From: a virus
Length of the DNA: 38,933 nt
Reading direction: 5' to 3' (one strand)
IMG/VR virus record: IMGVR_UViG_3300045988_053496
The notes below the pieces were generated by a model that made no database searches, was not told the origin of the DNA, and saw only the letters and a list, made by a program, of their open reading frames with translations. A program made the translations under genes and the position numbers. Shown piece after piece: positions 1 to 21,598 of the stretch. Each line of letters opens with the position of its first letter. Positions within the stretch are counted from its first letter, which is position 1.

Positions 1-85
1 CCCGATGATTCAGGCAGAAGAAGCCATCCGCGTGGCGCGGGGGCTGATCGGGACGGCGTACAGCGAGCTGGACTGCATCAACCTC
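1..85. repeat. Left copy of the 85-nt terminal direct repeat
   Basis: cccgatgattcaggcagaag...gcatcaacctc is identical to 38849-38933. Confidence 0.95.
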
Positions 86-742
86 ATCAAGAAGGTCATC
101 CGCACAGCACCGGGCGGCGACAAAAACTACACGACGGCGGGGACGAACGCCCTGTGGGACAGCGACAGCAAGAGCGGGAAATACCGCGACCTGACGTGGA
201 AGCAGGCGGGCATTTCCGGCGCGAAGCCGGGCATGCTGGCGTTTATGGGCGTGGGCACGGGCGACGTGAATCACACCGGGCTGGTGACGGAGCAGGGCAC
301 GGTCATCCACTCAAGCAAGAGCCGGGGCGGCGTGGTTGAAACCGCGCTGACGGCGAAGGCGGGGTGGAACGGGCTGGGAAAGCACAGGATGATTGAGGTG
401 AATGAAATGGAAAAGGAATTTGGCAACGCGACGGTATCGGTCACGTGCGGCTACCTGAACATCCGCGAGGGCGCAAGCACGGCGGCAAAGATCATCGCCA
501 AAGCCGCAAACGGCGCGCGGGTGAACATCATCCGCGAGGCGGGCGGCACAGGCTGGGTCTTCGGCGTGCTGGCAAGTGGCGAGGCCGGGTACATGTCCAG
601 CGAGTATCTGGTCGAGGATGCGCCGCCGGAAAGTGGAGATCAGGGCGAGACAGGCGGCGAAGCGCCGACCACGACAACCCTGCGCAGGAGCGACGGCGTG
701 TATATCACGCTGGGCGGCGCGTGGGCGCTTGCGGAGGATTGA
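5..742 (+). CDS. Endolysin: NlpC/P60-type cysteine peptidase with a C-terminal SH3-like cell-wall-binding domain
   Basis: N-terminal YSELDCINLIKKV (catalytic Cys context) and NHTGLV...IHSS His motifs. C-terminal GYLNIREGASTAAKII...GWVFGV..GYMSSEYL matches bacterial SH3. Sits next to the holin. Confidence 0.8.
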   Translation: MIQAEEAIRVARGLIGTAYSELDCINLIKKVIRTAPGGDKNYTTAGTNALWDSDSKSGKYRDLTWKQAGISGAKPGMLAFMGVGTGDVNHTGLVTEQGTVIHSSKSRGGVVETALTAKAGWNGLGKHRMIEVNEMEKEFGNATVSVTCGYLNIREGASTAAKIIAKAANGARVNIIREAGGTGWVFGVLASGEAGYMSSEYLVEDAPPESGDQGETGGEAPTTTTLRRSDGVYITLGGAWALAED

Positions 743-2501: not shown

Positions 2502-2985
2502 ACAGCTGCGCGTCTTGCGCGGATTGAAACAGAAAGAGCTGGCAGATAAGATGGGTATATCCGCCCAGCAGCTTAACAACTATGAGGGTGGGCAGAGCAA
2601 CCCCGGAAACAAGATTCTGCCCGCACTGGCGGACGCGCTGGGCGTTTCGACAGCCTACCTTCGGGGCGACGCCCAGTGGCTGGCCGTCTATGACTGGCAG
2701 ACCGGGCGCACGGAGGCGCTGCCCATCATGGCCGAGACGGTGATCGACGATTACGGCATTTTTTACCTCGTCGAGCACCCAGAAATCGGAGTGATGGCGG
2801 TGATCCAGTCCGAGGGCGTGCAGTTTACCCTTGTGGACTGGACAGCAGATCAACCGCTGACCGTCGATGCAATCAGCGGGAAGCAATGGGCTGACAGCCG
2901 AGGCGAGGATGCGGTCATGTACAAGGGACTGCCGCGCATCCTCGTTGGCGGCGAATTCGGAAGCAAGAAAAGCCGTATCATCTGA
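2491..2985 (+). CDS. XRE-family HTH protein with a C-terminal domain of unknown function
   Basis: MNIKQLRVLRGLKQKELADKMGISAQQLNNYEGG is a typical HTH_3. The internal ATG at 2491 has RBS ggaaggaga. The upstream part of ORF 2413 is the 3' end of the previous gene read in another frame. Confidence 0.8.
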   Translation: MNIKQLRVLRGLKQKELADKMGISAQQLNNYEGGQSNPGNKILPALADALGVSTAYLRGDAQWLAVYDWQTGRTEALPIMAETVIDDYGIFYLVEHPEIGVMAVIQSEGVQFTLVDWTADQPLTVDAISGKQWADSRGEDAVMYKGLPRILVGGEFGSKKSRII

Positions 2986-3001
2986 AAAGGGAGAGAAAAA
3001 T

Positions 3002-3283
3002 ATGAAAATCAAAATTTACAAGTCTTACGGTGTTCTGGCGCATGAATACCAGCCGGTTTATACGTGGGCATGCCCGCAGAGCGATATCTATGATGAGATC
3101 ATCGTGGAGATACCGAACGTTGACGGAGAGAATTGCTACGGTCAACCGCTCGTCAATTTTGGCGACGGGGTTGTTTATCCGCTCCCGATGGTGCTTGGCA
3201 ACTGGGGCGATGAGCCAGCGCTTATCTGGTATGACGGCGCGGTACAGCGCCACAAAATTTTGAAAGCGTATACAAAACTATAA
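3002..3283 (+). CDS. Hypothetical protein (accessory cassette gene 4)
   Basis: ATG at 3002 after RBS aaaagggagag. The upstream part of ORF 2867 is judged non-coding. Confidence 0.55.
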   Translation: MKIKIYKSYGVLAHEYQPVYTWACPQSDIYDEIIVEIPNVDGENCYGQPLVNFGDGVVYPLPMVLGNWGDEPALIWYDGAVQRHKILKAYTKL

Positions 3284-6721: not shown

Positions 6722-6964
6722 CGTGTGAATTATCGTGTGAAATGATTTTGAAAATGATTGCACTCTTGCGGGAAAGGAATACACGAAACGAGCAGAATTT
6801 TACACGAGAAAAACCAGAGCACAAAAGAAAAAATCCAGAAACCTTTGTGGCTTCTGGATTTCACACGTGGTGCCGGTGGCGGGGGTCGAACCCGACGAAT
6901 CAGCATAAAAAATCAAAGAATACAATGATTTTTGATTTAACGTGTGAATTTTCGTGTGAAATGA
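6722..6964. other. attP region: tRNA-3'-end-like core flanked by integrase arm-type repeats
   Basis: The 24-nt unit cgtgtgaatt(a/t)tcgtgtgaaatga occurs at 6722-6745 and 6941-6964. An inverted copy, atttcacacg, lies at 6858-6867 directly beside the core. The region is immediately downstream of int. Confidence 0.7.
6868..6895 (-). other. tRNA 3'-end-like segment (half T stem, T loop, acceptor 3' strand, ACCA): candidate attP core
   Basis: The minus strand reads tcgggttcgacccccgccaccggcacca. No matching 5' half of a tRNA is present. Confidence 0.65.
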
Positions 6965-6977
6965 GGCTCGAAAACGG

Positions 6978-8087
6978 CTATTTTTTAGCCGAAACAGACC
7001 CGTACAAGGCCGCTGTTCCTGCCGCCATTTTGGCGTTGATTTCGTCCTGCCGTTCGCGGAAAAGCTCGACGTACACCTGATGGGAGAAAGCGGATGTTGA
7101 ATGACCCATGACGCGGGCAAGCTCTTCCTCGGATGCGCCGGAGTATGCGACCGACGTTGCGAAGAAGTGGCGCAAATCGTAGAAGCGCATGGTTTCCGGA
7201 AGCCCTAGGTCTTTGCGCGTGATATCCCATCTGTAAATAACGCGGCTGGGCTTCATCTGGAAAACCTGCTCGTTGTCTTTTCCTCGTGGCTTTGCGTCGT
7301 AAAGGTTTTCAAAGAAAGACCAGTCAACGCGCAGGACGCGCTCTCCCGCGTCGCTTTTCGTCCCTTTGGGTTGAAATCCCTTTTCGCCGCGCACGATTGC
7401 CTTGTCGATGTTGATCGTGCCGATTTTGTATGTCCTGCCGCTCGAATCCAGCGCATCAATAGGGGATGCGGATAAATCCCCCCACGTCAGAGCGTAAGCC
7501 TCAGAGGGACGCAAGCCCGCGCTGATGATGAAGCAGCAGTAGAGGTAGAAATCCGTCTCCCAGCGTTCCGCGACGTATCGGAGAATGTCGCCAGCCCACT
7601 TTTCGGAAAAGAGCTGCTTTTTCTTCCGCTTGAGCTTTGCGAGAACAATTCCATTAAGCTGTAGATCGGGGACGTTCTTCTCCAAAATCGTCTTGAGGAA
7701 GAAGTAGTCATTTCTGACCGTCTTCGGCGTGTGTTCCCGCGCCCGGTCGTCAAGCGCCTTCTGCACATCACGGGGCGTGATTTGATCGAGCTTCACGTTG
7801 ACCAGCGACGGGAAGCTGTTCTTGCGGATGGTGACATATCCTCTCAGTGTAGACGGCGAATAGCCCTGCACCCGACAAGTGTCTATAAACTCGTCCATTG
7901 CCTGACCGAGCGTCAGCGTTTGCTTCTTCTTCCGCTTGCGATCGGCAGCAGCGACGGCGGCAAGACGTTCAGATTCGCGGGCGGTCGATGCGGTAAAGGA
8001 TTCGACGATTGGCTTTCCTGCTGCATCCCTGCCGAGGTAAACCTGTGTTCGCCAGTTGCCGGACGGCAGCTTTTTTGCTTTTGCCAT
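6978..8087 (-). CDS. int: Tyrosine recombinase / phage integrase
   Basis: N-terminal AKKLPSGNWRTQVYLG arm-binding-type motif. C-terminal RFYDLRHFFATS...MGHST...VY gives the R..HxxR..Y catalytic set. Confidence 0.93.
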   Translation of the reverse strand: MAKAKKLPSGNWRTQVYLGRDAAGKPIVESFTASTARESERLAAVAAADRKRKKKQTLTLGQAMDEFIDTCRVQGYSPSTLRGYVTIRKNSFPSLVNVKLDQITPRDVQKALDDRAREHTPKTVRNDYFFLKTILEKNVPDLQLNGIVLAKLKRKKKQLFSEKWAGDILRYVAERWETDFYLYCCFIISAGLRPSEAYALTWGDLSASPIDALDSSGRTYKIGTINIDKAIVRGEKGFQPKGTKSDAGERVLRVDWSFFENLYDAKPRGKDNEQVFQMKPSRVIYRWDITRKDLGLPETMRFYDLRHFFATSVAYSGASEEELARVMGHSTSAFSHQVYVELFRERQDEINAKMAAGTAALYGSVSAKK

Positions 8088-9511: not shown

Positions 9512-9694
9512 ATGAAATCTTGCGATGCAATCGTGTTAAAGGAAAATTTGAATGAACGACAAATTAGGCTCCTGAAAGCGTTCGACAGATTAAACCCGGA
9601 AGAGCAGGAGAATCTTATCTCTTATCAGCAGCGCCTTCTGCGTATGCAAGAACGCAAAGCTGATTCTCGTTGTTGCATCGATCAAAAGTTTTAA
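9512..9694 (+). CDS. Small protein carrying a copy of the repressor C-terminal motif; convergent with the repressor and overlapping it
   Basis: RBS gaggtg lies 6 nt upstream. LNERQIRLLKAFDRLNPEEQ matches repressor LSERQKTLLKTFDRCNNENQ. The last 80 nt overlap the repressor 3' end. Confidence 0.4.
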   Translation: MKSCDAIVLKENLNERQIRLLKAFDRLNPEEQENLISYQQRLLRMQERKADSRCCIDQKF

Positions 9695-9956
9695 GAAGCG
9701 TTTTTTGCCGCTCTGAAAGTGGAAGCTCGTCAATATTGGCGAGCTTTTTTTGTTGTTCAACGTCTGGCTGATCATAGCCAATCAAATAATCAACCGAAAC
9801 ATCCAGGAAACGCGCCATTTTACGAAGCGTATCAAAATCTGGCTCCCTTTTGCTGTTCTCATACATCGAAGCAGTGCTGACGGCAATACCCAATTTGTCG
9901 CTAAACTCTTTTAAGTTTACCCCTTTGCTCTGCCTGGCTTTCCGTATGTTATTCAT
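9615..9956 (-). CDS. CI-like XRE-family repressor
   Basis: MNNIRKARQSKGVNLKEFSDKLGIAVSTASMYENSKREP is an HTH_3. Divergent from the cro-like gene across an operator-rich region. Confidence 0.88.
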   Translation of the reverse strand: MNNIRKARQSKGVNLKEFSDKLGIAVSTASMYENSKREPDFDTLRKMARFLDVSVDYLIGYDQPDVEQQKKLANIDELPLSERQKTLLKTFDRCNNENQLCVLAYAEGAADKR

Positions 9957-10836: not shown

Positions 10837-11053
10837 TATCTGCCACAGCTTCCCGTGTTTGAGCGGTTGCCCGAACGCCGAACCCGATATGCCTGTATGT
10901 CAGTGCAGCAGATGCAAGGCGACGATCTATGAGGGCGACAAGATTGCGGAGATCGGCAACAAGGTTTTGTGTGAGGATTGCGCCGACAGCATCAGCACGA
11001 CGGAGTGGCTTGAGCTGCTCGGCACCGGATGGACATTTGCGGAGGCGATTTGA
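10829..11053 (+). CDS. Cys-rich zinc-ribbon-like small protein
   Basis: ATG at 10829 after aaggaggg. MCDICHSFPC..CQCSRCK...LCEDC. The upstream 62 codons of ORF 10643 are Arg-rich and judged non-coding. Confidence 0.6.
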   Translation: MCDICHSFPCLSGCPNAEPDMPVCQCSRCKATIYEGDKIAEIGNKVLCEDCADSISTTEWLELLGTGWTFAEAI

Positions 11054-11055
11054 AA

Positions 11056-12009
11056 ATGAAAGAAATCTACAGCGTGTACAAGGACACGCGCAACATGAGC
11101 CGCGCAGAATGGCTCGCGGCTCGAAAAGCCGGAATTGGCGGCAGCGATGCGGCCGCGATCATTGGCTTGAACCCGTTCTCATCGCCGCTCACGGTCTGGG
11201 CGGATAAGACCAGCGCGGACGAGCCGCTGGAAGAGAGTGAGAGCGAGGCGATCTGGCTCGGAAACGTGCTGGAAGACCACGTAGCGAGGCGATACGCCGA
11301 AGAGAGCGGTCTGAACATCGTCAGATGCAATCAGATGATGCAGAGCATCGAGCATCCCTACATGCTGGCGAACATCGACCGCCGCGTCAAGGGCAAGAGG
11401 ATCGGCGTTGAGATCAAGACGACATCCTCCTTCACAAAGACCGATTTTGCCGGAGGGGACATCAACCCGTGGTACTACGCGCAGTGCATGCACTACCTCG
11501 CGGTCACGGGCTGGGATGAGTGGAAGCTCGTAGTGCTGGTCATCGGCCGCGGGCTGTATACATACAGCTTTAAGCGTAAAGAGAACGAAGACCAGATCAA
11601 GGCGCTCATCTCCGCTGAAGATTTCTTCTGGCATGAGTACGTCGAGCAAGGCAAATGCCCGCCCGTTGACGGAAGCAAGGCGGCGGAAGAAATCCTGACC
11701 AAGCGCTATCCCGTATCTGACGGCTCGACCATCACGCTTGACTGTGATGATGCAATCAGCCAATACATGACGCTGACGAGCAAAATCAAAGAGCTTGAGG
11801 GAGATAAAGCCCTGTATGAGCAGCGTATCAAGGAGTGCATGGGCGAATCTGAGCGCGGAGAAAGCGCGAATTACATCGTAAGCTGGAAAAACAGCAGCCC
11901 GAGAAAGACCATCGACACCAAGCGGCTCACAGAGGAACACCCCGAAATCGTTGACAGATACATCAAGATTGGCGCACCTACACGCCGATTCATGGTCAAG
12001 GAGGCATAA
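11056..12009 (+). CDS. YqaJ-type viral recombinase exonuclease (lambda Exo-like, PD-(D/E)XK)
   Basis: EWLAARKAGIGGSDAAAIIGLNPFSSPLTVW is the YqaJ N-terminal signature. Paired with recT. Confidence 0.88.
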   Translation: MKEIYSVYKDTRNMSRAEWLAARKAGIGGSDAAAIIGLNPFSSPLTVWADKTSADEPLEESESEAIWLGNVLEDHVARRYAEESGLNIVRCNQMMQSIEHPYMLANIDRRVKGKRIGVEIKTTSSFTKTDFAGGDINPWYYAQCMHYLAVTGWDEWKLVVLVIGRGLYTYSFKRKENEDQIKALISAEDFFWHEYVEQGKCPPVDGSKAAEEILTKRYPVSDGSTITLDCDDAISQYMTLTSKIKELEGDKALYEQRIKECMGESERGESANYIVSWKNSSPRKTIDTKRLTEEHPEIVDRYIKIGAPTRRFMVKEA

Positions 12010-12013
12010 AAGC

Positions 12014-12940
12014 ATGGAAAGACAGGCAAGAAACACGGCGGGAATTATCACAAACGCAACCGCCAGCCGCGCACCCGTCGCGGCGACTACGACCGCACCC
12101 GTCGCGGCGAGAACGGTCAATCAGATTTTGAACGGCATGTTCGATTCTGAGGGCTACAAAAAACGCCTGAGCGACTTGCTGGGTGATCGAGCGCCGCAAT
12201 TTATCTCGGCGGTCATCACACTTTGCAACGCGGATGCAAACCTGACGGCGGCGGTTCGGCAAGCCCCGCAGACGGTCATTCAGGCGGCACTCAAGGCCGC
12301 AAGCTATGATCTTCCGGTTGACAATGCGCTCGGTTTCGCCTACATCGTGCCGTTCAACAACAGCAAAAAGACGGACGACGGAAACTGGATCAAGATTCCG
12401 GAAGCACAGTTCATCCTCGGCTACAAGGGCATGATTCAGCTTGCGCTTAGAACCGGAGCATACAAGCGGCTGAACGTCATGGATGTGCGCGAAGGAGAGC
12501 TGATCTCATGCGACAGGTTGACCGAAGACTTTGAGTTCCGCTGGGAACAGGACGAGGCGGAGCGTGAGAAACTACCGATCATCGGCTATGTCGGATATTA
12601 TCGCCTTGTGAATGGCACAGAGAAGACGGTGTACATGAGCGTTCAGCAGATCGAGGCGCACGAAGCGAAGAACCGAAAGGGAAAGAATCAGGGCAAAGGC
12701 TGGCGCGACGACTGGGATGCTATGGCGCGGAAAACCGTCATGCGCCGCTTGCTCGGACGCTGGGGCGTTATGTCCATCGACTACAAGAGCGCATCTCCCG
12801 CCGCGCTGAAAGCGGCACATGATATAAGCGCGGGGCTGGTCGATGATGAATCTCCGTTGCCTGACGGCATCTTAGATGTAACAGACACAGGAGCGGCGCA
12901 CGACGCGCCGGAGAACGTGTCCGAAGACAAGGAACAATAA
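12014..12940 (+). CDS. recT: RecT-family single-strand annealing protein
   Basis: SYDLPVDNALGFAYIVPF...ILGYKGMIQLALRTG matches the RecT core. RBS aaggagg. Confidence 0.9.
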   Translation: MERQARNTAGIITNATASRAPVAATTTAPVAARTVNQILNGMFDSEGYKKRLSDLLGDRAPQFISAVITLCNADANLTAAVRQAPQTVIQAALKAASYDLPVDNALGFAYIVPFNNSKKTDDGNWIKIPEAQFILGYKGMIQLALRTGAYKRLNVMDVREGELISCDRLTEDFEFRWEQDEAEREKLPIIGYVGYYRLVNGTEKTVYMSVQQIEAHEAKNRKGKNQGKGWRDDWDAMARKTVMRRLLGRWGVMSIDYKSASPAALKAAHDISAGLVDDESPLPDGILDVTDTGAAHDAPENVSEDKEQ

Positions 12941-12944
12941 TAAA

Positions 12945-13425
12945 ACTGCAAGGGCTAAACCCTTGCGCATGGTGCGCAGCTCAGGAGAGCGAACGCGGGA
13001 CGTAAAGCGGCGTTACGCGAGAAGGGGCGGCTCGATACCGCCGCGCGCCGAGCAGCAGGAGAAATCCATATTTTGTAACAAGCACCCCCGCTTGAAACGA
13101 TATCGCCCACAGAAAGGAGGACACAGGGCAGGCAAATTCACACTGGCGGCTCGGAAAGACGAGCAAAAGACCAACAACAATAGGCTCAAAAGGTTTGGGC
13201 AACGCACATTTTTTCTGACAGCCGGAAAGACGGCAAATAAAAAGACGTTTCACAAACGGCCTGCCGTCGGGCTAAAACGGCGGCACTCATGGCAAGCGTG
13301 GAAGGCATCGCGCGGGTGCAACACCCCCCCTATTCGTCAAGGTTTCTTCCTTTCCTTCCGTTCTTACAAGATTGACGCGAAGCACCTTGCCCACGCGCCC
13401 GGTTCGATTCCGGGGCTTGCCACAA
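12945..13425 (+). ncRNA. Candidate large structured ncRNA with tRNA-like modules at both ends
   Basis: About 510 nt with no credible ORF in an otherwise tightly packed genome. Many GC-rich hairpins and two CG-GAAAGA-CG hairpins. T-arm-like ggcgg-ctcgata-ccgcc (13026-13042). Perfect T arm cccgg-ttcgatt-ccggg (13398-13414) with a 7-bp acceptor-like closure. Confidence 0.45.
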
Positions 13426-13450
13426 TTTTACAACCAGAAAGGAGAACCTC

Positions 13451-14146
13451 ATGCTCGATTACTTAAAAATTTTTCCGGAGTTTGAGACGATGCTCAGGCG
13501 ATATACGGACGAAGAGCGCGGTCGGCTTTTTATGGCCATGATGGCCTATGCGTATCGCGGCGAAGAGCCTGATTTCGATGAGGACGCGCACGAATGGTAC
13601 ATCTGGGACACGATCAAGCTAAAGATTGACCAGTGCGCCGAAACGCTCGAATCCAAGCGAGCGAGCGGGAAGAAGGGCGGAAGCGCCAAGCAGACCGAAG
13701 CAGACGCAAGCAAAGCCAAGCAGACTGAAGCAGACGCAAGCGAAACCGACATATATAAGAATAAGAATAAGAATAAGAATAAGAGTAGTAGTAGTTACGT
13801 ACCCCCTACCCCCTACGACGACATCGGCGACGACGAACTGCTGCGACTGCGGCAGGAACAGCAGGACGTGGAGACAGCCGCAAGGCGTGTCGGCTTGCCT
13901 GTCAGCGCTGCTGGCGACTATGACACCATGGACAACCTACGCGCGGAGCATGGAGCGGACAATCTGCTCAAGGCCATATCCCGGATTCAGGGCGCGACCG
14001 AGAAAAGCCGAGACTGGCGGTATATCTCCGGGATTCTCCGCAAAGAGAAAGCATCCGGCTACACATGGACGGAAAAACCGCCGAACGCATCAGGAGGGAT
14101 AAACTATGAACGACCCGAGCCAAGAAGCCACACGCGCGATCTCTGA
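13451..14146 (+). CDS. Replication initiation / replisome-organiser protein (DUF6291-like N-terminus, DnaD-like C-terminus)
   Basis: YTDEERGRLFMAMMAYAYRGEEP at the N-terminus. C-terminal SRDWRYISGILRKEKASG is DnaD-like. Immediately precedes the helicase. Confidence 0.7.
   Translation: MLDYLKIFPEFETMLRRYTDEERGRLFMAMMAYAYRGEEPDFDEDAHEWYIWDTIKLKIDQCAETLESKRASGKKGGSAKQTEADASKAKQTEADASETDIYKNKNKNKNKSSSSYVPPTPYDDIGDDELLRLRQEQQDVETAARRVGLPVSAAGDYDTMDNLRAEHGADNLLKAISRIQGATEKSRDWRYISGILRKEKASGYTWTEKPPNASGGINYERPEPRSHTRDL
13685..13741. repeat. Tandem direct repeat, two 27-nt copies at a 30-nt period, inside the initiator gene
   Basis: gccaagcagac(c/t)gaagcagacgcaagc at 13685-13711 and 13715-13741. 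Confidence 0.9.
13757..13780. repeat. (AAGAAT)x4 microsatellite forming an AT-rich island, followed by (AGT)x3
   Basis: aagaataagaataagaataagaat encodes KNKNKNKN. Confidence 0.9.
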
Positions 14147-15353
14147 GCGGGCTTTTTGCGGCGCGATCATCAGGGGCGACACCAGAGCGACGGACGCGGG
14201 GCTGAAAGCCGATTGGTTCACCGTGCCCGTTTGCCGACGTATATTCTCGGCGGCGCTGGCGATTGAGAGACAGGGACGGCCTTGCGACCTTGCGACGCTC
14301 GAAGAGATTCTTAGCGATGACGATCTCCACGAGGCAATCACCATCGCGGCGGAGACCGTCACGACGGCGCTTGCAGACCAGCAGGCGGACAACATCCGCC
14401 TCGCGGCAATGCGCAGGGAGATCGTCAAAACATGCCTAGAGACAGCGCGAACGGCGAACGAGGGCGAAATATCGACGACAGAGCTGCTAGACGGCGCTGT
14501 GATGCGATTAAATGCGCTCAGCGGACAAACAGACGACTGCGGTGTAATCAGCAGCACAGACGCGATTTGCGGCTTCTACGCGCGACTGACAAGCGGAGCG
14601 GTCGAGCCGGTCACAAAGACGGGCTTTCCCAAACTCGACAGGGCGCTGATGATTGCGGGCGGAAAACTGATCGTCGTCGGCGCGAGGCCGTCGGTCGGCA
14701 AGTCTGCGTTTCTGCTGCACCTTGCGGTTAAGGCGCTGGACGTTGGCCGGAAAATCCTGCTGGTATCGTGCGAGATGGGCGCGGATGAGATCATCGGGCG
14801 CATCGTGGCGCAGAAAAGCCGCGTATCGTCTGACAAGATCGAGCGTCACGAGCTGGACGACAGCGAAATTGTCAAAGTCGCGGAGAGTTTCGCAGAAATC
14901 CCTTCCGAGCAGCTTTTTATCAGCGAAAGGGTGCGAACTGTGCGCGACATAAGGCGCATGGCACTTAGAATCCGCGCGAGATGCGGGCTGGATATGATTG
15001 TCGTCGATTACTTGCAGCTTCTCGACGCGGGGCAGAAGACGAGCAACCGCTCGGAGGCGGTCGGCGTTGTCACACGAGCGCTTAAATCGCTGGCGATGGA
15101 GCTTAAAATCCCGATCCTGACCGCAAGTCAGCTTAACCGTGCAAGCGAGCGCAACGACGCGCCGAGGCTCTCCGATCTGCGCGAATCCGGCAGTATCGAG
15201 CAGGACGCGGACGCGGTGCTTCTTCTCCACGCGCCGGACGACAAGGACAACCCGGAAAGGCTGCTGTTCCTCGACAAAAACCGAGGCGGAGAATGCGGGA
15301 AAATCAGACTGTATTTTGACGGCGCGACCATGAGATTTTCAGAAATGCAATGA
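14106..15353 (+). CDS. Replicative DNA helicase, DnaB family
   Basis: Walker A GARPSVGKSAF. DMIVVDYLQLL, SQLNRASE and LRESGSIEQDADAV are DnaB C-terminal motifs. Confidence 0.92.
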   Translation: MNDPSQEATRAISERAFCGAIIRGDTRATDAGLKADWFTVPVCRRIFSAALAIERQGRPCDLATLEEILSDDDLHEAITIAAETVTTALADQQADNIRLAAMRREIVKTCLETARTANEGEISTTELLDGAVMRLNALSGQTDDCGVISSTDAICGFYARLTSGAVEPVTKTGFPKLDRALMIAGGKLIVVGARPSVGKSAFLLHLAVKALDVGRKILLVSCEMGADEIIGRIVAQKSRVSSDKIERHELDDSEIVKVAESFAEIPSEQLFISERVRTVRDIRRMALRIRARCGLDMIVVDYLQLLDAGQKTSNRSEAVGVVTRALKSLAMELKIPILTASQLNRASERNDAPRLSDLRESGSIEQDADAVLLLHAPDDKDNPERLLFLDKNRGGECGKIRLYFDGATMRFSEMQ

Positions 15354-15739: not shown

Positions 15740-16194
15740 ACAAGGTTTTTTTGATCGGGAATCTGACCCGCGACCCGGAAATGCGATCCACGCAGTCCGG
15801 CGTTGCGGTCTGCAACTTCACGATTGCGGTAAATCGCCGCTTTCGTAACCCGCAGACCGGTCAGCAGGAAACGGATTTTCTGAACGTCATCGCGTGGCGG
15901 CAGTTGGCCGAGCTGTGCAGCAAGTATCTTGCCAAAGGGCGCAAGGTAGCCGTGACGGGAAGCATCCAAACCCGCACCTACGAGGCGCAGGACGGAAGCA
16001 AGCGGACGGCGTGGGATATTGTCGCCGACGAGGTGGAGTTCCTGACGACGCAGAACCAGCAGAGCAGCACACAGAGCGCGCCGGGGGCATACACGACGGC
16101 GGCGAGCAAAGACAGCGGGACGGCCTATGCGCCGCAACCGCACAACGATTTTGGCGGGTTCACGCAGGTGGACGACGAAGAATTGCCGTTTTGA
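15736..16194 (+). CDS. ssb: Single-stranded DNA-binding protein
   Basis: NKVFLIGNLTRDPEMR...FLNVIAWRQLAE OB-fold motifs and an acidic tail DDEELPF. GTG start after ggagg. Confidence 0.93.
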   Translation: MNKVFLIGNLTRDPEMRSTQSGVAVCNFTIAVNRRFRNPQTGQQETDFLNVIAWRQLAELCSKYLAKGRKVAVTGSIQTRTYEAQDGSKRTAWDIVADEVEFLTTQNQQSSTQSAPGAYTTAASKDSGTAYAPQPHNDFGGFTQVDDEELPF

Positions 16195-16208
16195 TGGGAG
16201 GTTCAAGC

Positions 16209-16637
16209 GTGAATAGCTGTTTATTTTCAAGCGCAACCGTCGAGTGGGCAACGCCGCAGGCTCTTTTTGACGAGCTGGACGCGGAGTTCCATTTCAACCT
16301 TGACCCGTGCTGCACACATGAGAACGCGAAATGTGCGGAACACTTCACCAAGGTGGAGGATGGTCTTTCCCAAAATTGGGGGGGTAAAAGGGTATTTTGC
16401 AATCCGCCATACGGGCGAGAACTTCCGAAATGGATCAAGAAAGCGCACGACGAGGCCGAGAAAGGCGCGCTGGTGGTGATGCTCATTCCTGCGAGAACAG
16501 ACACCCGAGCCTTTCACGACTACATTTACCATCAAGCCGAGATTAGGTTTTTGAAAGGGCGGATCAAGTTTGGCAACGCGAAAGCGTCCGCGCCTTTTCC
16601 GTCGATGGTGGTTATTTTTAGAGGAGGAACGAAATGA
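16209..16637 (+). CDS. Phage Dam-type DNA N6-adenine methyltransferase
   Basis: WATPQALFDELDAEFHFNLDPC...NAKC...FCNPPYG...MLIPARTDTRAFH is the small phage Dam family pattern with NPPY. Confidence 0.85.
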   Translation: MNSCLFSSATVEWATPQALFDELDAEFHFNLDPCCTHENAKCAEHFTKVEDGLSQNWGGKRVFCNPPYGRELPKWIKKAHDEAEKGALVVMLIPARTDTRAFHDYIYHQAEIRFLKGRIKFGNAKASAPFPSMVVIFRGGTK

Positions 16638-16963
16638 ACGATTTGAACGAATTGCGAAATGAAATCTACGATGACGCGGTGAAACATGGGCTGTGGGAGT
16701 TTAGGGAGAATTGTGCTTGGCTTGACGAACTGGACGAGATGACGGAAGAAGACAAGAAGGATTATTGCGTCGATGTAATTGCAGGAGAGGTAGACGAGTT
16801 AAGGCAAGCAGTGAACGAAAAAGAAGAACATTTTGCTGAGGAGATGGCGGACGTTATCATCACAGCGCTGTCTGCCGCCGGGTATCTGGGCATCGACATT
16901 GACAAGGCGGTGCGGGCGAAGATGGAGATCAACCGAGGGCGTGAATGGAGGCATGGGAAATGA
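16634..16963 (+). CDS. MazG-like nucleotide pyrophosphohydrolase
   Basis: GEVDELRQAV...EEMADVIITALSAAGYLGIDIDKAV..K...N is the EExxE/D metal-binding helix pattern. Confidence 0.75.
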   Translation: MNDLNELRNEIYDDAVKHGLWEFRENCAWLDELDEMTEEDKKDYCVDVIAGEVDELRQAVNEKEEHFAEEMADVIITALSAAGYLGIDIDKAVRAKMEINRGREWRHGK

Positions 16964-17925
16964 GCCTTATCGAGTATGACCTTTTCGGGCAAAAGCGGGA
17001 CAAGGTGCAGACGGCAATAGACCGGCTGCGGGCGTTCGAGCCTAAAGATGGGTATTTCCTTGCGTTTTCGGGTGGAAAAGACAGCCAGTGCATCTATCAT
17101 TTGGCAAAGATGGCAGGCGTGAAGTTTGACGCGCACTATCATGTGACAAGCGTTGACCCGCCGGAGCTGGTGCAGTTTATCAAGGCACAATATCCCGATG
17201 TCCACAGAGATATCCCGCACGACAAAGACGGGAAGCCGGTGACGATGTGGAGCTTGATTGCGCAGCATACGATTCCGCCAATGCGACAATTTCGATATTG
17301 CTGTGGCGAACTCAAAGAGGTTTCTGGAAAAGGAAAAATTGTCGTTACCGGCGTAAGATGGGCTGAAAGCGCAAGGCGAAAGAATCTGCATGGAATCGTC
17401 AATATCAGAACCGAAGACAAAAAGTTTATCGGGCGCGCATTGGACGTAAAAGGAGTATCCTTGAATGTTCGTGGCGGACTGATTATGAACGATGACAACG
17501 ACGATGCGAGACGAATGGTTGAGCACTGTTTCCGCACAAAGAAAACGATGGTAAATCCCATTGTTGATTGGACAGATGACGACGTATGGGAGTTTCTGGA
17601 CAATATCGCCAAAGTGCCGCACTGCAAGCTGTATGACCCGCCATACAGCAAAAAGCGCCTTGGCTGTATTGGCTGTATGATGTCGGGGAATAAGGCGATG
17701 ATCGCGGATTTTGAACAATACCCAAAGTATAAGACGGCGTATATCAAGGCTTTCGATAAAATGATCGTCAATCATCCGGGAAATTATATAAGCCTGCTCG
17801 GCAAACGCATCCCGACAGACAAGCTGTGTGGCAGTCAAGTGCTTGACTGGTGGATTTGGTGGAGCGACAAGAAACCGAAAATCGAGAATTTGCCGGAATC
17901 ACTTAAAAAATTATGGGAGGGATGA
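16960..17925 (+). CDS. PAPS-reductase-family (PP-loop ATPase) protein
   Basis: FLAFSGGKDSQCIYHL is the SGGKDS PP-loop. Size and layout match phage PAPS reductase-like proteins. Confidence 0.8.
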   Translation: MSLIEYDLFGQKRDKVQTAIDRLRAFEPKDGYFLAFSGGKDSQCIYHLAKMAGVKFDAHYHVTSVDPPELVQFIKAQYPDVHRDIPHDKDGKPVTMWSLIAQHTIPPMRQFRYCCGELKEVSGKGKIVVTGVRWAESARRKNLHGIVNIRTEDKKFIGRALDVKGVSLNVRGGLIMNDDNDDARRMVEHCFRTKKTMVNPIVDWTDDDVWEFLDNIAKVPHCKLYDPPYSKKRLGCIGCMMSGNKAMIADFEQYPKYKTAYIKAFDKMIVNHPGNYISLLGKRIPTDKLCGSQVLDWWIWWSDKKPKIENLPESLKKLWEG

Positions 17926-17928
17926 CCG

Positions 17929-18537
17929 ATGAAATGTAAATGGTACGCCGATTTTGAGGGCACATGCACCAATGGCGAGTGTCCGTATCGCGGCGACACA
18001 TGCCCGACGAGCGAACACCCGGAGGTATGCAAACACGCGGAAGAAGCTCCCGAAATTCCGCAGTTGAGCACGGAAGAGCTGGTCAAGTCGCTGAGGCTCT
18101 GCGATAGCGCGAATTGCGTCGGTTGCACACTTTATGGGTTTTACGACTGCGGCAGCATCATAAATCCGCAAGCTGCCGACATGCTCGAAAAGCTGGCGGC
18201 AGAGAAGAACGCGAAGAAGTCGGAGTGGATCAGCGTCAAAGATGGGCCGCCGGAGAACGAGCAAGAAGTCCTTATCTACTGTAACCGTGGTGGATTTAAG
18301 TTTGTCTGCCCGGCTATTTATGAAGACGGAACCATGTTGACGCAGAATAGCCGCTGGAACTGGAACGACTTAGAAGAGTACGGCACTTATAGTGAAGAAA
18401 ATGATGATTATTTCGTGGCGAAAGGCTGGTGGGAGAATAGGCAGTTTACCCCGGACGATGTGTATAACTGCCCAGTAGACTGCGAAGTCACTCACTGGAT
18501 GGCGCTGCCCAAACCGCCGAAGGAGGAAGAGCGATGA
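17929..18537 (+). CDS. Cys-rich N-terminal domain fused to a DUF551-like C-terminal domain
   Basis: C-terminal EWISVKDGPPENEQEVLIY...VTHWMALPKPP is the DUF551 pattern. Confidence 0.65.
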   Translation: MKCKWYADFEGTCTNGECPYRGDTCPTSEHPEVCKHAEEAPEIPQLSTEELVKSLRLCDSANCVGCTLYGFYDCGSIINPQAADMLEKLAAEKNAKKSEWISVKDGPPENEQEVLIYCNRGGFKFVCPAIYEDGTMLTQNSRWNWNDLEEYGTYSEENDDYFVAKGWWENRQFTPDDVYNCPVDCEVTHWMALPKPPKEEER

Positions 18538-18704
18538 AAACGCCTGACGAAATCAAGAAGGCTGTGAGACTGTGCATTTTGAGTGAGAACTGCAAGGCTT
18601 GCCCATATTACGAGGACGTGAATTGTAGTACAATGCTGATGTTTGACGTTTTCGCCTGCATCGAGCAGCTTGAAGCGGAAAGAGAGGGAAAGAGCCATGA
18701 GTGA
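18534..18704 (+). CDS. Small Cys-motif protein (56 aa, below the ORF-track cutoff), paralogous to a segment of the previous protein
   Basis: ATG overlaps the upstream stop (ATGA). AVRLCILSENCKACPYY compares with SLRLCDSANCVGCTLY in the 17929 protein. Confidence 0.5.
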   Translation: MKTPDEIKKAVRLCILSENCKACPYYEDVNCSTMLMFDVFACIEQLEAEREGKSHE

Positions 18705-19131
18705 AAAACCGAAATGCCCCGGATGCGGGGCTGACATGGAGTTGGTGCATTTGTGTAACGCCGCATTTTGCTACGTCTGCAAATGCGGCTGGGATTCGCC
18801 AGTCGGCATTGATTCTGAATCGGCGTTCCGAATGGCGATGCGCCGCACCGAGCCGAAGAACCGCGTGCTGACGCTGGAAGAAGTGGAAGCGTATTGCGAA
18901 GGCGGCGCAGATGTTACGCCGCTGTGGTATGAGAGAAAGGATCATAGCGACATAAATCGCTGGATGGTGATTGACCTTCCAGAACTTGCTTTCGGCAGCG
19001 CGGCAACGGTAAAGCGTTTGGTAAATAGCCCATTTTTTGAATCAACATATGGGGAAAAATGGCGCTGCTGGCTGCGCAAACCGACGAATGAAGAAATGGA
19101 GGGAACGCCATGGGAAGAGAACAGGGCATGA
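18697..19131 (+). CDS. Lar-like zinc-ribbon (restriction-alleviation-family-like) N-terminus with a WRCW..KPT..E...PW C-terminal motif
   Basis: KCPGCGADMELV....CYVCKCGW.....SESAFRMAMRR resembles Lar-family CPxCG...CxxC...A...WNRR. Confidence 0.5.
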   Translation: MSEKPKCPGCGADMELVHLCNAAFCYVCKCGWDSPVGIDSESAFRMAMRRTEPKNRVLTLEEVEAYCEGGADVTPLWYERKDHSDINRWMVIDLPELAFGSAATVKRLVNSPFFESTYGEKWRCWLRKPTNEEMEGTPWEENRA

Positions 19132-19562
19132 TGATTCAATTCACAATGGAATTTGTGGTTCGATTTCTTTTGAGCGCAATCCTCTTGACCATCCTGACCT
19201 TGCTTATACTTTCTTTTAAGCGTCGCCTTGAGGACACAAAATGGAAGAAAGAAAATCGGACGCTGTGGCTAAGACACTATTACGAGATGCATCCAAATCA
19301 AATCATGCTGTACAGCGATGTCATATACATGGCAAAAGAGGGATTACAAGAGGTCGTATATGTGGAGTGGCGCAACGATTATGACGATTACGCAAGACCG
19401 AATCTGACGAAAAACGGCGATATACAGTTCGAGCTGATAGGAGAGGGAAAAAGCGCGGCATTTAAGGCAGAGGATTATAACGTAAAATTCCGTTGTTGGC
19501 TGCGCAAGCCGACAGAAGCGGAAAGGCGGGAAACGCCGTGGGCAGGTGATAGCCGTGAATGA
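19110..19562 (+). CDS. Membrane-anchored hypothetical protein sharing the FRCWLRKPT..E...PW C-terminal motif
   Basis: N-terminal TM helix FLLSAILLTILTLLILSF. RBS ggaggg lies 7 nt upstream of 19110. Confidence 0.6.
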   Translation: MGREQGMMIQFTMEFVVRFLLSAILLTILTLLILSFKRRLEDTKWKKENRTLWLRHYYEMHPNQIMLYSDVIYMAKEGLQEVVYVEWRNDYDDYARPNLTKNGDIQFELIGEGKSAAFKAEDYNVKFRCWLRKPTEAERRETPWAGDSRE

Positions 19563-19755
19563 CGCGCCATGCCGCGACTGCGCGAGCCGCGAGGTCGGCT
19601 GTCACGCGGGATGATGCGAGAGATACAAGGCGTATGCGGACGGACGGAAGACGGCGCTGGAAAACCGCTACACGGCTTGTATAGAAGGCACGGGCAAAAA
19701 GCGCAGTCACGAGCGCTGGCTGAAGTTTCAGAGAAAGACACAAAAAGGAGGTTAA
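19555..19755 (+). pseudogene. Small Cys-rich ORF interrupted by an in-frame TGA (19612-19614)
   Basis: Reads VNDAPCRDCASREVGCHAG-TGA-CERYKAYADGRKTALENRYTACIEGTGKKRSHERWLKFQRKTQKGG. The downstream part has no start codon of its own. Confidence 0.45.
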
Positions 19756-19757
19756 TA

Positions 19758-20186
19758 ATGCAGTTGACGGAAGCGGACAAGCGAACGCTGCTTGACACGC
19801 GAAAAAAGCGCAAGGCGTATGTGAGGACGGAGGAAGCCTACGAGGAAGAGAAAGCCGCCTATCTGACGGCGCAGAAGCTCACGGGCATGCCGTCCGGCTC
19901 ATCCAGTGGTGCAGGGCTTGAAGCATATGTCATACGGCGCGACAAGGCTTTCGAGGCACTGCATGCCGCGAGCATGGCATACGCTATGGCGATATACGCG
20001 GCTCTGGACGTGATCGACAAGATCATCTTGCAGATCGAAACGCCGGAGAAGGTCAGCAGGGTGCGCGAGTTTTGCAAGGCGTATTTTATCGAGGGATTGT
20101 CCGTCACTGAGGCGACGGCGCGTCAAGGGTTGGCTGAAAGCACGGGCTGGGCGTACAAGAGGGAGATTATAGGCGACTTGCAGTAG
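19758..20186 (+). CDS. Putative late-gene transcriptional regulator (sigma-70 region-4-like HTH; ArpU/RinA-like position)
   Basis: ATG at 19758 after aaaaaggagg. C-terminal FIEGLSVTEATARQGLAESTGWAYKREI HTH. Located just upstream of the packaging genes. Confidence 0.55.
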   Translation: MQLTEADKRTLLDTRKKRKAYVRTEEAYEEEKAAYLTAQKLTGMPSGSSSGAGLEAYVIRRDKAFEALHAASMAYAMAIYAALDVIDKIILQIETPEKVSRVREFCKAYFIEGLSVTEATARQGLAESTGWAYKREIIGDLQ

Positions 20187-20432
20187 ACTTATAGAGCGGT
20201 TGGAGCTACACATAGAGTGCGACCGTGTGATAACATTAAAATCAGCGGAGAGCGCAAAGCGCAGGACGCTGGGCTATAATCAGCAGCAAAGCCGCGGCGA
20301 ACGTCACGGCTTTTGTTTTGGGGTGATTTGCGCTTTACCTCCGGCGCAGATCGGGACGCAACGCAACAGGGACGCAGAGTGGGAGCGGCGTTGATTATGC
20401 TGATTCAGGAGGATGTGCAGGGAGGCGAAATT

Positions 20433-21068
20433 ATGGAGATCAAGCGCGTCAAGCTGTCGGAAATCCGGCCATACGAGAAGAACCCGCGCAAGAATGACAG
20501 AGCGGTTGATGCTGTCGCCGCGTCGATTAAAGAGTTCGGCTGGCAGCAGCCCATCGTCGTTGACAAGGACGGAGTTATCATTGCCGGTCATACCCGGTAC
20601 AAAGCCGCGAAAAAGCTGAAATGCAAGGAAGTCCCTGTTGTATACGCGGACAACCTGACCGAAGAGCAGGTCAAGGCGTATAGGCTGGCGGACAACAAGA
20701 CGAGCGAGCTTGCGGAGTGGGACGCTGATCTGCTTTCCGAAGAATTGCTTGATCTCCAAGATTTCGACATGGGGCAGTTTGGATTCGATGATTTTAACGC
20801 AGACATTCAGGAGATTGAGGAAGCGCACGAGGATGAATATGAGGTTTCTTTGCCAGAAGAACCGAAGGCGAAGATTGCAGACATATATCAGCTCGGAAGG
20901 CACAGACTGATGTGCGGTGACAGTACAAATCCTGAGTGTGTTTCCAAACTATGTGAGGGGGGTACGTTGACCTTCTTCTTACAGACCCACCTTATGGGGT
21001 TGACTATACTGGTTCGACGAAAGAAAAGCTCAAGATCAAGAACGATGCGCTTGACGACGATTCCTTAA
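20433..21068 (+). CDS. ParB-like nuclease domain portion of a ParB-MTase fusion, truncated by a frameshift at a G6 tract
   Basis: IRPYEKNPRKND...IIAGHTRYKAAKKL is the ParB N-terminal domain. The sequence after 20962 (TLTFFLQTHLMG...) is out-of-frame read-through. Confidence 0.8.
   Translation: MEIKRVKLSEIRPYEKNPRKNDRAVDAVAASIKEFGWQQPIVVDKDGVIIAGHTRYKAAKKLKCKEVPVVYADNLTEEQVKAYRLADNKTSELAEWDADLLSEELLDLQDFDMGQFGFDDFNADIQEIEEAHEDEYEVSLPEEPKAKIADIYQLGRHRLMCGDSTNPECVSKLCEGGTLTFFLQTHLMGLTILVRRKKSSRSRTMRLTTIP
20957..20962. repeat. G6 homopolymer at the frame junction of the ParB-MTase
   Basis: gaGGGGGGtac. One extra G, or a -1 slip on G_GGG_GGT, joins the two frames. Confidence 0.9.
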
Positions 21069-21598
21069 AAGAAATGCTTGCCAGTGCATTTTCGGCTGCT
21101 GACTCCGTTATGAAACCGGGTGCAGTATTTTACATCTGGCACTCAGATTCAAAAGCACTTGTCTTTAGAATCGCGTGCCAGATGGTCGGCTGGGAAGTTC
21201 GTCAAGTTCTCATTTGGGCAAAAAACTCCCTTGTTCTGGGCAGAAAAGATTACCAATTGAAGCATGAACCGTGTCTGTACGGGTGGAAGTCTGGCGCTGG
21301 TCATCTGTGGGCATCTGACAGAAAACAGACGACGATTCTTGAATTCGATAAGCCGCTCGCAAACAAGGAACATCCGACGATGAAGCCTGTTAAGCTCTTT
21401 GACTATCAGATCCAGAACAACACAAAGGGCGGAGATATTGTTCTTGACCTCTTTGGTGGATCTGGAACGACCATTATTGCCTGTGAACAGAACGGTCGAA
21501 ACGCGAGGGTGATGGAACTCGACCCGAAATATGTTGATGTGATCATCGACAGATGGGAAACTATGACGGGCGAAAAGGCGGTGCTTGTTAATGCTTGA
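20957..21598 (+). CDS. N4/N6 DNA methyltransferase catalytic portion of the same fusion (shifted frame; first ATG only at 21074)
   Basis: This frame opens exactly at the G6 tract and reads YVDLLLTDPPYGVDY...HPTMKPVKL...VLDLFGGSGTTIIACEQ. These are the DPPY and FxGxG motifs. Confidence 0.8.
   Translation, partial: GGYVDLLLTDPPYGVDYTGSTKEKLKIKNDALDDDSLKEMLASAFSAADSVMKPGAVFYIWHSDSKALVFRIACQMVGWEVRQVLIWAKNSLVLGRKDYQLKHEPCLYGWKSGAGHLWASDRKQTTILEFDKPLANKEHPTMKPVKLFDYQIQNNTKGGDIVLDLFGGSGTTIIACEQNGRNARVMELDPKYVDVIIDRWETMTGEKAVLVNA

Follow-up and report, generated by a model that had tools for sequence, protein, structure and literature searches.

The stretch of DNA analysed here, 38,933 nt from IMG/VR virus record IMGVR_UViG_3300045988_053496 (hereafter the window), is that of a temperate siphophage, as judged from its gene annotation. 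Between its genes for RecT and for a replisome-organizer-like protein lies a gap of 510 nt, which contains a tRNA-like element that we refer to as TL2. A preliminary description, made from the sequence alone, had presented this element as an oversized tRNA-like structure, in which a canonical T arm and a 7-bp acceptor stem enclose a body that does not form a cloverleaf. Comparison with relatives of the phage makes it very probable that TL2 is a conserved, structured, tRNA-mimicking module of an undescribed composite phage RNA. The coordinates of all features are collected in Table 1.

The gap has been annotated as a gene by public pipelines: an open reading frame of 167 aa (12963-13466) covers it, and equivalent calls are found in relatives (L189, 9513-10016; L202, 4616-5119). 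The translation is of low complexity, and a frame, whichever is chosen, stays open across the gap in only ~4 of 51 distinct homologous regions. The gap is therefore considered noncoding, and the 167-aa frame, interrupted as it is in most relatives, was ruled out as coding sequence; on this comparison the gene call is an annotation artefact, by which public gene callers place a spurious protein on top of a noncoding RNA. The conserved noncoding region spans ~480 nt (12948-13425), from just past the upstream stop codon to the TL2 trailer, with TL2 as its 3' end.

Conserved structure of TL2

Re-inspection of the sequence bore out all the coordinates of the preliminary description. The strands of the acceptor stem, GGCAAGC and GCTTGCC, pair perfectly, and the latter abuts a T arm of sequence CCCGG-TTCGATT-CCGGG; the discriminator is followed by CAA, not CCA. 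CGCGCGGG pairs with CCCACGCG, with a single C-A mismatch, to give a helix that is longer than the anticodon stem whose place it takes. TL2 thus has the 7-bp acceptor stacked on a 5-bp T stem with a TΨCRANY-type loop (UUCGAUU) by which a tRNA is recognised, and is in this sense a genuine tRNA-like element, built on a 7+5-bp acceptor/T-arm unit. The combination of a perfect 5-bp T arm, a TTCRANN loop and, immediately 3' of the arm, a 7-mer that has its reverse complement 40-260 nt upstream occurs once in the window, against a mean of 0.0025 per dinucleotide shuffle (1 in 400 shuffles). TL2 also possesses a D-arm analogue, GUG-GAAGG-CAU, which the preliminary description did not include and which takes in the GGAAGG that had there been given to a pseudoknot. 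Its loop has the consensus GNAGG, the final two G residues being invariant, like G18 and G19 of tRNA.

To determine how far this structure is conserved, 53 distinct TL2 sequences were aligned (alignment A2). Across the four helices (acceptor, D-arm analogue, main helix and T stem) 97.1% of the pairs are formed, compared with 36-44% when the registers are slid, and six pairs have changed on both sides. Shuffles never matched the alignment in the percentage paired, in the number of pairs or of cells changed on both sides, or in the covariation score. Only in the number of further pair types did the alignment not exceed the shuffles. Acceptor pairs 5:68 and 6:67 swap between A-U/G-C and G-C/A-U (GGCAGAC/GTCTGCC in 12 sequences), a pair of the D stem changes from G-C to A-U in 19 of the 53, and three pairs of the main helix are altered in the L044 type (CAGCGGGG/CCCAGUUG). 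The C-A mismatch of the window's main helix is a C-G pair in 23 of the 53 sequences, and L194 has a compensated T stem, CCCUG/CAGGG. The acceptor stem, the loss of whose pairing in homologues had been named beforehand as grounds for abandoning the element, is both conserved and covarying. The T loop occurs as UUCGAUU, UUCAAUU, UUCGAAU, UUCAAAU and UUCGACU, so that its changes are confined to position 57 (G or A) and position 59, as in tRNAs. A covariance model built from A2 gave a single hit in the window (13291-13425, 153 bits) and, furthermore, aligned over its full length with two genuine tRNAs of phage T4, tRNA-Arg (22.5 bits) and tRNA-Thr (16.4 bits), an objective measure of the tRNA-like nature of the TL2 frame.

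The interior enclosed by the main helix is of a different kind. It exists in at least four unrelated versions, 55-90 nt long, whose only common traits are a richness in C and U, with CCUCC or CUUCC motifs, and a 3' strand that does not vary, UU(G/A)ACGC..AGCACCUUGCCC; the C/U-rich tract is the sole interior feature common to all five versions when the divergent class E, described below, is included. Two pairings proposed in the preliminary description did not survive the comparison. The inner helix CGTCAA/TTGACG (13335-13340/13372-13377) is 87.7% paired and shows no covariation, with two of its pairs broken in 18 and 13 of the 53 sequences, respectively; and in the supposed GGAAGG/CCTTCC pseudoknot, the purine strand of which is the D loop, pairing is no better than in neighbouring registers. 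An alternative stem, CAAGGU (13338-13343) with ACCUUG (13384-13389), is 90.9% paired compared with 20-46% in slid registers; its 3' strand never varies, so covariation is uninformative here.

TL1 and the other modules of the RNA

The larger RNA, and with it a twin of TL2 located 320 nt upstream, TL1, were absent from the preliminary description. The TL1 cloverleaf is the minimum-free-energy fold of its sequence and accounts for 48% of the ensemble. Over 40 distinct sequences it is 97.8% paired, with five pairs changed on both sides; covariation was found in the acceptor stem, the 'anticodon' arm and the T stem, and none that is two-sided in the D arm. TL1 was not recognised by ARAGORN, and a loose pattern scan for it in viral contigs returned mostly unrelated matches.

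In all classes of the RNA, each module has a GC-rich hairpin ahead of it, the end of which lies 4-6 nt upstream. The stem of the first, hp1, covaries in relatives (GCCGGGGC-AACCCGGC, GCAGGGGCAACCCTGC and TGCGGGAGTGATCCCGCA, with GCGGGGGAGATTCCCCCGC in class E), as does that of the second, hp2 (GCCGCTGG/CCAGCGGC in L042 and GCTGGCGG/CCGTCAGC in L044). On the minus strand hp1 is followed by AGTTTTATTA and scores as intrinsic-terminator-like; in this orientation it might halt antisense transcription into the recombination genes.

Between the two mimics lies a series of smaller elements. The 3' strand of the hairpin that follows TL1 (CCGCTTG, 13088-13094) also complements the TL1 loop sequence AAGCGG, and at the level of classes the two covary, AAGCGG occurring with CCGCUU and CAAGCAG with CUGCUUG. 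This evidence is weak, because the sites are linked and the classes few; it suggests that 13088-13094 may swap between the TL1 loop and the local CAAGC (13079-13083) as alternative pairings. The hairpin with a purine-rich loop has a covarying stem (GCUCC/GGAGC in class 2, GGCAG/CUGCC in class E) and keeps its purine tract in every class, and the core sequence AAAUUCACACUGGC (AAAUUCAYACUGGC) is likewise found in all five classes. The GARAGA hairpins have a constant hexaloop, with CUGRC before each, and are present in 1-6 copies among relatives. Their stems differ between copies yet remain complementary, with G-U pairs that are valid on the plus strand only. The motif AAAGAC (13155, 13166, 13226 and 13241) is found outside the hairpins as well as within them; the GARAGA and AAAGAC elements could be protein-binding sites or overlapping origin repeats.

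Table 1 Features of the noncoding RNA and of the surrounding window (nt positions of the window)
Feature	Position	Strand	Remarks
Endolysin	5-742	+	
Integrase	6978-8087	-	
HTH repressor	9615-9956	-	
YqaJ/RecE-type exonuclease	11029-12009	+	
RecT	11951-12940	+	
hp1, GC-rich hairpin GCAAGGGCTAAACCCTTGC	12948-12966	+	4 nt 5' of TL1; no plus-strand U tail
TL1, tRNA-like cloverleaf	12971-13050	+	discriminator G13050
TL1 acceptor stem GGUGCGC/GCGCGCC	12971-12977 with 13043-13049	+	7 bp, U3-G70
TL1 D arm GCTC-AGGA-GAGC	12979-12990	+	4-nt AGGA loop
TL1 long 'anticodon' arm (~9-10 bp)	12994-13019	+	4 bp, 1x1 internal loop, 4 bp
TL1 'anticodon' loop	13003-13010	+	8 nt, consensus NNWAGYRG
TL1 T arm GGCGG-CTCGATA-CCGCC	13026-13042	+	
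Hairpin CAAGC-ACCCCC-GCTTG	13079-13094	+	
Hairpin GCCC[ACAGAAAGGAGGACACA]GGGC, purine-rich Shine-Dalgarno-like loop	13105-13129	+	purine tract AGAAAGGAGGA
Conserved core AAATTCACACTGGC, then first GARAGA hairpin	13134-13164	+	
First GARAGA-loop hairpin GCTCG-GAAAGA-CGAGC	13149-13164	+	
Second GARAGA-loop hairpin GCCG-GAAAGA-CGGC	13221-13234	+	
hp2, GC-rich hairpin GCCGTCGGGCTAAAACGGCGGC	13263-13284	+	6 nt 5' of TL2
TL2, whole	13291-13422	+	3' tRNA-mimic module
TL2 acceptor stem	13291-13297 with 13415-13421	+	7 bp
TL2 D-arm analogue	13298-13308	+	3-bp stem
TL2 main helix	13309-13316 with 13390-13397	+	8 bp
TL2 variable C/U-rich interior	13317-13371	+	C/U tract 13341-13359
TL2 invariant 3' strand TTGACGCGAAGCACCTTG	13372-13389	+	
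TL2 T arm	13398-13414	+	discriminator A13422
3' trailer CAATTTTACAACC and Shine-Dalgarno AAAGGAGAA (13438-13446) of replisome-organizer gene	13423-13450	+	gene start 13451; TL2 ~28-40 nt before the start codon across loci
DUF6291 (Pfam) replisome-organizer-like protein	13451-14146	+	
DnaB	14106-15353	+	
VRR-NUC, Dam, MazG, PAPS-reductase-like, ParB-N, methylase	after DnaB	+	
Terminase, portal, tail genes	22203 onward	+	

A scan of viral contigs with the downstream protein identified 29 loci, 27 of which have a TL2-type element ~54 nt before the start codon, a position that is kept even where the proteins are only 48-60% identical. DNA-pattern scans added more viral contigs and 42 contigs from metagenomes, which are human-gut assemblies wherever a source is stated. 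Together these give ~60 distinct versions of the RNA, in which the whole noncoding region measures 408-619 nt and TL2, in most relatives, 125-158 nt. The RNA is more conserved than the flanking genes and always lies directly 5' of one of two types of replisome-organizer gene, with RecT, or SSB in relatives, on the recombination side; one integrated copy is flanked by host sequence of an uncultivated Clostridia bacterium. It is best explained as a composite phage RNA carried by temperate siphophages of uncultivated human-gut Clostridia. L040 (~2770-3003) has a relative of the replisome organizer (64% identity) without the RNA, a coding region extending as far as its ribosome-binding site; replication modules of this type can therefore do without the RNA.

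The most divergent versions (L191, L193, L195, L196 and L201), retrieved by means of the central core sequence, form class E, in which the same parts follow in the same order (for example L193, ~2500-2920) with unrelated stem sequences, upstream of a different replisome-organizer-type protein. The class E counterpart of TL1 is a cloverleaf with an 'anticodon' arm of 4 bp, a 1x1 internal loop and 5 bp, closed by an 8-nt loop, GAUAGUAG. That of TL2 reads GCGGCGC-AAACGGUUUUG-ACAGUG[UUCUUCCCCUUUGG]CACUGU-U-GCCGG-CUCAACU-CCGGC-GCGCCGC-ACCA and is only 73 nt long, with acceptor stem GCGGCGC/GCGCCGC, T stem GCCGG/CCGGC, an encoded ACCA and a 14-nt C/U-rich loop at the place of the anticodon loop; an extra hairpin, GCGGCA-UGC-UGCCGC, follows immediately after the CCA. 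Since class E keeps both the fold and the C/U loop with unrelated stems, it is these, and not the sequence, that are under selection.

Processing signals and rival explanations

In addition to their shape, the two mimics share the sequence features of precursors that are cut by tRNA-processing enzymes. A U precedes the acceptor stem (position -1) in 59 of 60 copies of TL2 and in all 55 copies of TL1, as well as in class E. The tails that follow the TL2 acceptor in 61 distinct relatives are ACAA (24), GCCA (20), CCAU (11), UCCA (4) and ACCA (2): NCCA is encoded in 26 of them, and the remaining relatives have a U-rich trailer. The earlier statement that no CCA is encoded holds for the window, to which it referred, and does not extend to these 26 relatives or to class E. 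Bacterial RNase P prefers a U at -1 and measures the acceptor/T stack, while Firmicutes RNase Z cuts CCA-less precursors 3' of the discriminator, after which the CCA-adding enzyme completes the end. The features of a substrate for RNase P and RNase Z, namely a 12-bp stack, a T/D elbow, U at -1 and either NCCA or a U-rich trailer, are conserved in TL1, TL2 and class E. RNase P is moreover able to process phage RNAs that are not tRNAs (phi80 M3, P4 CI and P1/P7 C4), which have no T loop (PMC5499578).

We tentatively favour a reading in which both modules are excised by RNase P together with RNase Z or exonucleases and then completed with CCA, which would punctuate the transcript, protect its fragments and yield tRNA-shaped RNAs with functional loops. 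As part of the early operon, the RNA would be transcribed from its place between the genes for recombination and those for replication (replisome organizer and DnaB), and TL1 and TL2 would offer host tRNA enzymes the parts that these measure: the 7+5-bp stack, the T loop and a D loop with GG. RNase P would cut at 12970/12971 and 13290/13291; RNase Z would cut past the discriminator where CCA is not encoded, exonucleases would trim the end where it is, and the CCA-adding enzyme would finish the 3' ends. Stable tRNA-shaped RNAs would be released and the early transcript punctuated, the upstream fragments ending in protective GC hairpins and the replication mRNA being left with a short leader of its own. 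The enlarged 'anticodon arm' of TL2 would then display the single-stranded C/U tract, its likely working surface, which may pair with purine-rich sequence, whether in Shine-Dalgarno-like sites or in the purine loop of the RNA itself. This accords with one suggestion of the preliminary description, that the element is a substrate of the CCA-adding enzyme or other tRNA-processing enzymes, still the most plausible reading. A bolder version, which we consider doubtful, would see here a new class of RNA whose two excisable mimics act as tRNA-shaped effectors (one with the NNWAGYRG loop, the other with the anti-Shine-Dalgarno-like C/U loop) and, with the purine loop and the GARAGA array, control the switch to phage DNA replication or translation, via pairing with ribosome-binding sites, contact with the ribosome or tRNA-binding proteins, or neutralisation of a tRNA-directed defence.

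Several observations weigh against excision and its proposed consequences. The proposed cuts by RNase P and RNase Z are deduced purely from the shape of the modules, and TL2 lacks nucleotides 8-9 and a variable loop, giving it a core unlike that of tRNA. A hairpin just 4-6 nt upstream might impede binding of the leader by the protein subunit of RNase P, and a fixed amino-acid identity is disfavoured because CCA is not universal and the discriminator varies (A, G, U, C). As to the C/U tract, it can form 8 bp with the downstream Shine-Dalgarno sequence, which places this ribosome-binding site only 37th among 46 gene starts. Against the purine loop (13111-13121) the tract is complementary over 10 bp in antiparallel orientation in the window (p ~0.05), and in class 2 and class E in a parallel, triplex-type orientation (runs of 8-11, p 0.001-0.009), a complementarity that follows no consistent rule across classes and is significant in some only. 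Finally, the family is narrow and was found only in human-gut contigs: neither the DNA pattern nor the protein gave a match in 185,579 representative genomes, one per species, and searches of GenBank phages (INPHARED) by DNA and protein gave none. A C4-like target at the downstream ribosome-binding site was considered and dropped, as indistinguishable from generic C/U-Shine-Dalgarno pairing.

The readings that would make TL2 a true tRNA or tmRNA, or what is left of one, can be judged from the same alignments. A decoding tRNA was rejected, since an 8-bp helix leads into a 55-90-nt interior where a 5-bp stem and 7-nt anticodon loop would be expected. ARAGORN, which had been proposed as a check on the element, detected no tRNA or tmRNA in the window or 13 related loci; Rfam 15 gave no family at the gathering threshold in the window and noise only at E<=10 in 12930-13600, and its tRNA model had no hit at E<=10 around TL2. 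TL2 might also be an unusual tmRNA of small size, or some other tRNA-like RNA that is aminoacylated and goes into the ribosome. The preliminary description was right that TL2 resembles the tRNA-like domain of tmRNA in topology: in both, a 7-bp acceptor and a T arm are combined with a reduced D region, and a long helix is set directly against the T arm, leaving no variable loop; many relatives encode NCCA; and a UGA/UAA alternation at 13374-13376 resembles a conserved stop codon. It was also right that this is not a standard tmRNA, the third acceptor pair being C-G. C3-G70 is in fact invariant (53 of 53 sequences), which precludes an alanine identity based on G3:U70, and the discriminator is not conserved; among close relatives the frame is displaced by 1-nt indels, located immediately before the putative stop and within the C run, for which reason a tag reading frame suggested by the alternation was dropped. 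TL2 also lacks detectable pseudoknots and has a body of ~100 nt, compared with ~300 nt in tmRNA; for tmRNA, ARAGORN found none in the window or 12 loci and Rfam had no match even at E<=10; and the annotations of the window include no SmpB-like gene. We regard the tmRNA reading as largely refuted, and very unlikely in any form. The canonical T arm and acceptor stem might, alternatively, be the relic of a tRNA gene, whether as the core of attP, as a pseudogene or as a tRNA split by an insertion, given that temperate phages often carry 3' fragments of tRNAs at attP. The true attP, however, lies at 6855-6905 (minus strand), directly downstream of int, and both strands of the TL2 acceptor are present and covary. 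This reading is refuted by these two facts, and its chance of being right is negligible also in view of the purifying selection, which exceeds that on neighbouring proteins, and the retention of the structure in a lineage of different sequence (class E). The earlier proposal of an intron-containing or degenerate tRNA goes with it, there being no anticodon stem-loop and an interior in at least four unrelated versions.

Three further explanations accept the conserved structure and assign it another role. The tRNA-like folds might serve uncut, supplying T-loop/D-loop elbows and coaxial stacks to a single large, ornate RNA, which would act as a protein scaffold or sponge by way of its GARAGA hairpins and AAAGAC repeats, or in cis as the leader of the replication operon. 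T-loop motifs turn up in many large RNAs; the entire 408-619-nt region is conserved as a unit, the core and the purine-loop hairpin are present in all classes, and long-range pairings are possible (the TL1 loop with 13088-13094, the C/U tract with the purine loop). An almost universal U at -1, a frequent NCCA and an exact 7+5-bp stack are nevertheless traits of an enzyme substrate that architecture would not need, and class E reduces TL2 to the size of a tRNA with ACCA, so that we consider a purely architectural role unlikely. Less likely again is that processed TL1 and TL2 are decoys, which titrate or misdirect a factor that targets tRNA (a toxin that modifies acceptor ends or a defence nuclease, an aminoacyl-tRNA synthetase, EF-Tu or a T-box leader). 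The faithful mimicry of the acceptor/T/D elbow without decoding capacity, and the presence of two unlike mimics in a single RNA, would suit such a function, and phages are known to oppose tRNA-directed defences with tRNA genes (bioRxiv 10.1101/2023.03.15.532788). However, no defence or toxin partner could be identified, the gene annotations of the window include no tRNA-related protein, the variable discriminator disfavours mimicry of one specific tRNA, and the fixed place upstream of replication genes is left unexplained. It seems similarly improbable that the element acts at the level of DNA, with the gap as the phage replication origin, the repeats as iterons of the replisome organizer, and the tRNA shape either incidental or acting in single-stranded DNA. 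In phages of Gram-positive bacteria replication origins commonly adjoin rep genes, and the region lies immediately upstream of the replisome-organizer and DnaB genes, has AAAGAC / CGGAAAGACG repeats of variable copy number and contains A/T-rich stretches. The differing yet complementary repeat stems with their strand-specific G-U pairs, the T-loop rules and the compensatory changes in the four TL2 helices are, however, constraints of the kind expected of RNA, and class E keeps structure, not sequence. An origin could nonetheless overlap the central part of the RNA.

Known systems of similar design and the genomic setting

RNA viruses, tmRNA and a few eukaryotic long noncoding RNAs provide well-documented cases of tRNA mimicry, and what belongs to a known kind here is the mimicry itself, together with processing signals of the RNase P type; what is new is the RNA family. 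The nearest phage precedent in design is T4 species 1 RNA (rnaC, 139 nt), a stable RNA that, like TL2, is phage-encoded and oversized (~140 nt), with a canonical T arm, CCGGG-UUCGAAU-CCCGG, set beside a terminal 5'/3' stem and with a non-cloverleaf body. Unlike TL2 it lies inside the T4 tRNA gene cluster and not upstream of replication genes, and a twin module, a hairpin array and a C/U-rich tract are all missing from it. The TL2 covariance model had no hit at E<=10 to rnaC (L190:2409-2547), although neighbouring T4 tRNAs match, so the general design is common to the two and homology is not detectable. To our knowledge, RNAC and RNAD of T4 are the only oversized tRNA-like RNAs known in DNA phages, and for some fifty years they have had no assigned function; the biological role of species 1 RNA is still given as unknown (PMC3014915). 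The family of TL1 and TL2 would represent a second, independent case.

In function, the nearest precedents are, by analogy, the RNase P-processed leaders of P4 and P1 and the tRNA punctuation seen in MALAT1 and in mitochondria. P4 CI and P1/P7 C4 (RF01695) resemble the reading proposed here in being small RNAs that host RNase P cuts from the leader of the operon they control, and differ in being hairpin-like with no T-loop equivalent (PMC5499578), whereas in TL1 and TL2 the T arm is complete and accompanied by a D-arm analogue. The Rfam C4 model gave no hit in the window at the gathering score or at E<=10. Forti et al., in 1995, reportedly found that the P4 operon is the replication operon, and that the RNA pairs with sites both upstream and downstream of itself. 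In MALAT1/mascRNA and in mitochondrial punctuation a tRNA-like fold within a longer transcript is the signal for RNase P and RNase Z, as would be the case here; these systems are eukaryotic or organellar, unlike a phage RNA, and the upstream MALAT1 product is guarded by a 3' structure (a triple helix), where the present RNA has a simple GC hairpin 4-6 nt before the module. YrlA is another noncoding RNA with a tRNA-like T/D/acceptor module, and it too is found in phages; in it, however, the helix to which Ro binds is made by the ends of the RNA, and a loop caps the 'acceptor', the reverse of the TL2 topology. The annotations of the window include no Ro60 gene, and Rfam gave no match to YrlA there, nor to ROOL or GOLLD at threshold in the window or at E<=10 in 12930-13600.

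We found no paper or Rfam family that describes this RNA; the 10,006 unnamed candidates in one catalogue of phage RNAs (PMC10690425) lie outside this comparison. The system should be a tractable one, with a fixed address at the boundary of recombination and replication genes, two mimics in each RNA, natural variants (TL2 of 73-158 nt, 1-6 hairpin repeats) and an abundant setting in the human gut. If the proposed processing is correct, temperate phages of Clostridia would shape their early transcripts by tRNA punctuation and make stable small RNAs, and there would also be a natural tRNA scaffold on which to present an antisense loop.

Elsewhere in the genome, a cluster of the DNA-modification type (15894-21598) lies 3' of the replication module and includes genes for a Dam-like methylase, a MazG-like protein, DUF551, a fragment of an N6/N4 methylase, a PAPS-reductase-like protein (16945-17925) and a protein with a ParB-N domain (20313-21068). 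A related prophage has a Mom-like gene at the equivalent place (L202, 231-683). The core of attP, ATGCTGATTCGTCGGGTTCGACCCCCGCCACCGGCACCA, corresponds to the 3' end of a tRNA-type gene, and an identical attP 26-mer was found at the junction between this prophage and its host (L202, 11180-11215), beside which the host carries genes for an AsnC regulator, chromate transporters, LysR and RsmB/F.

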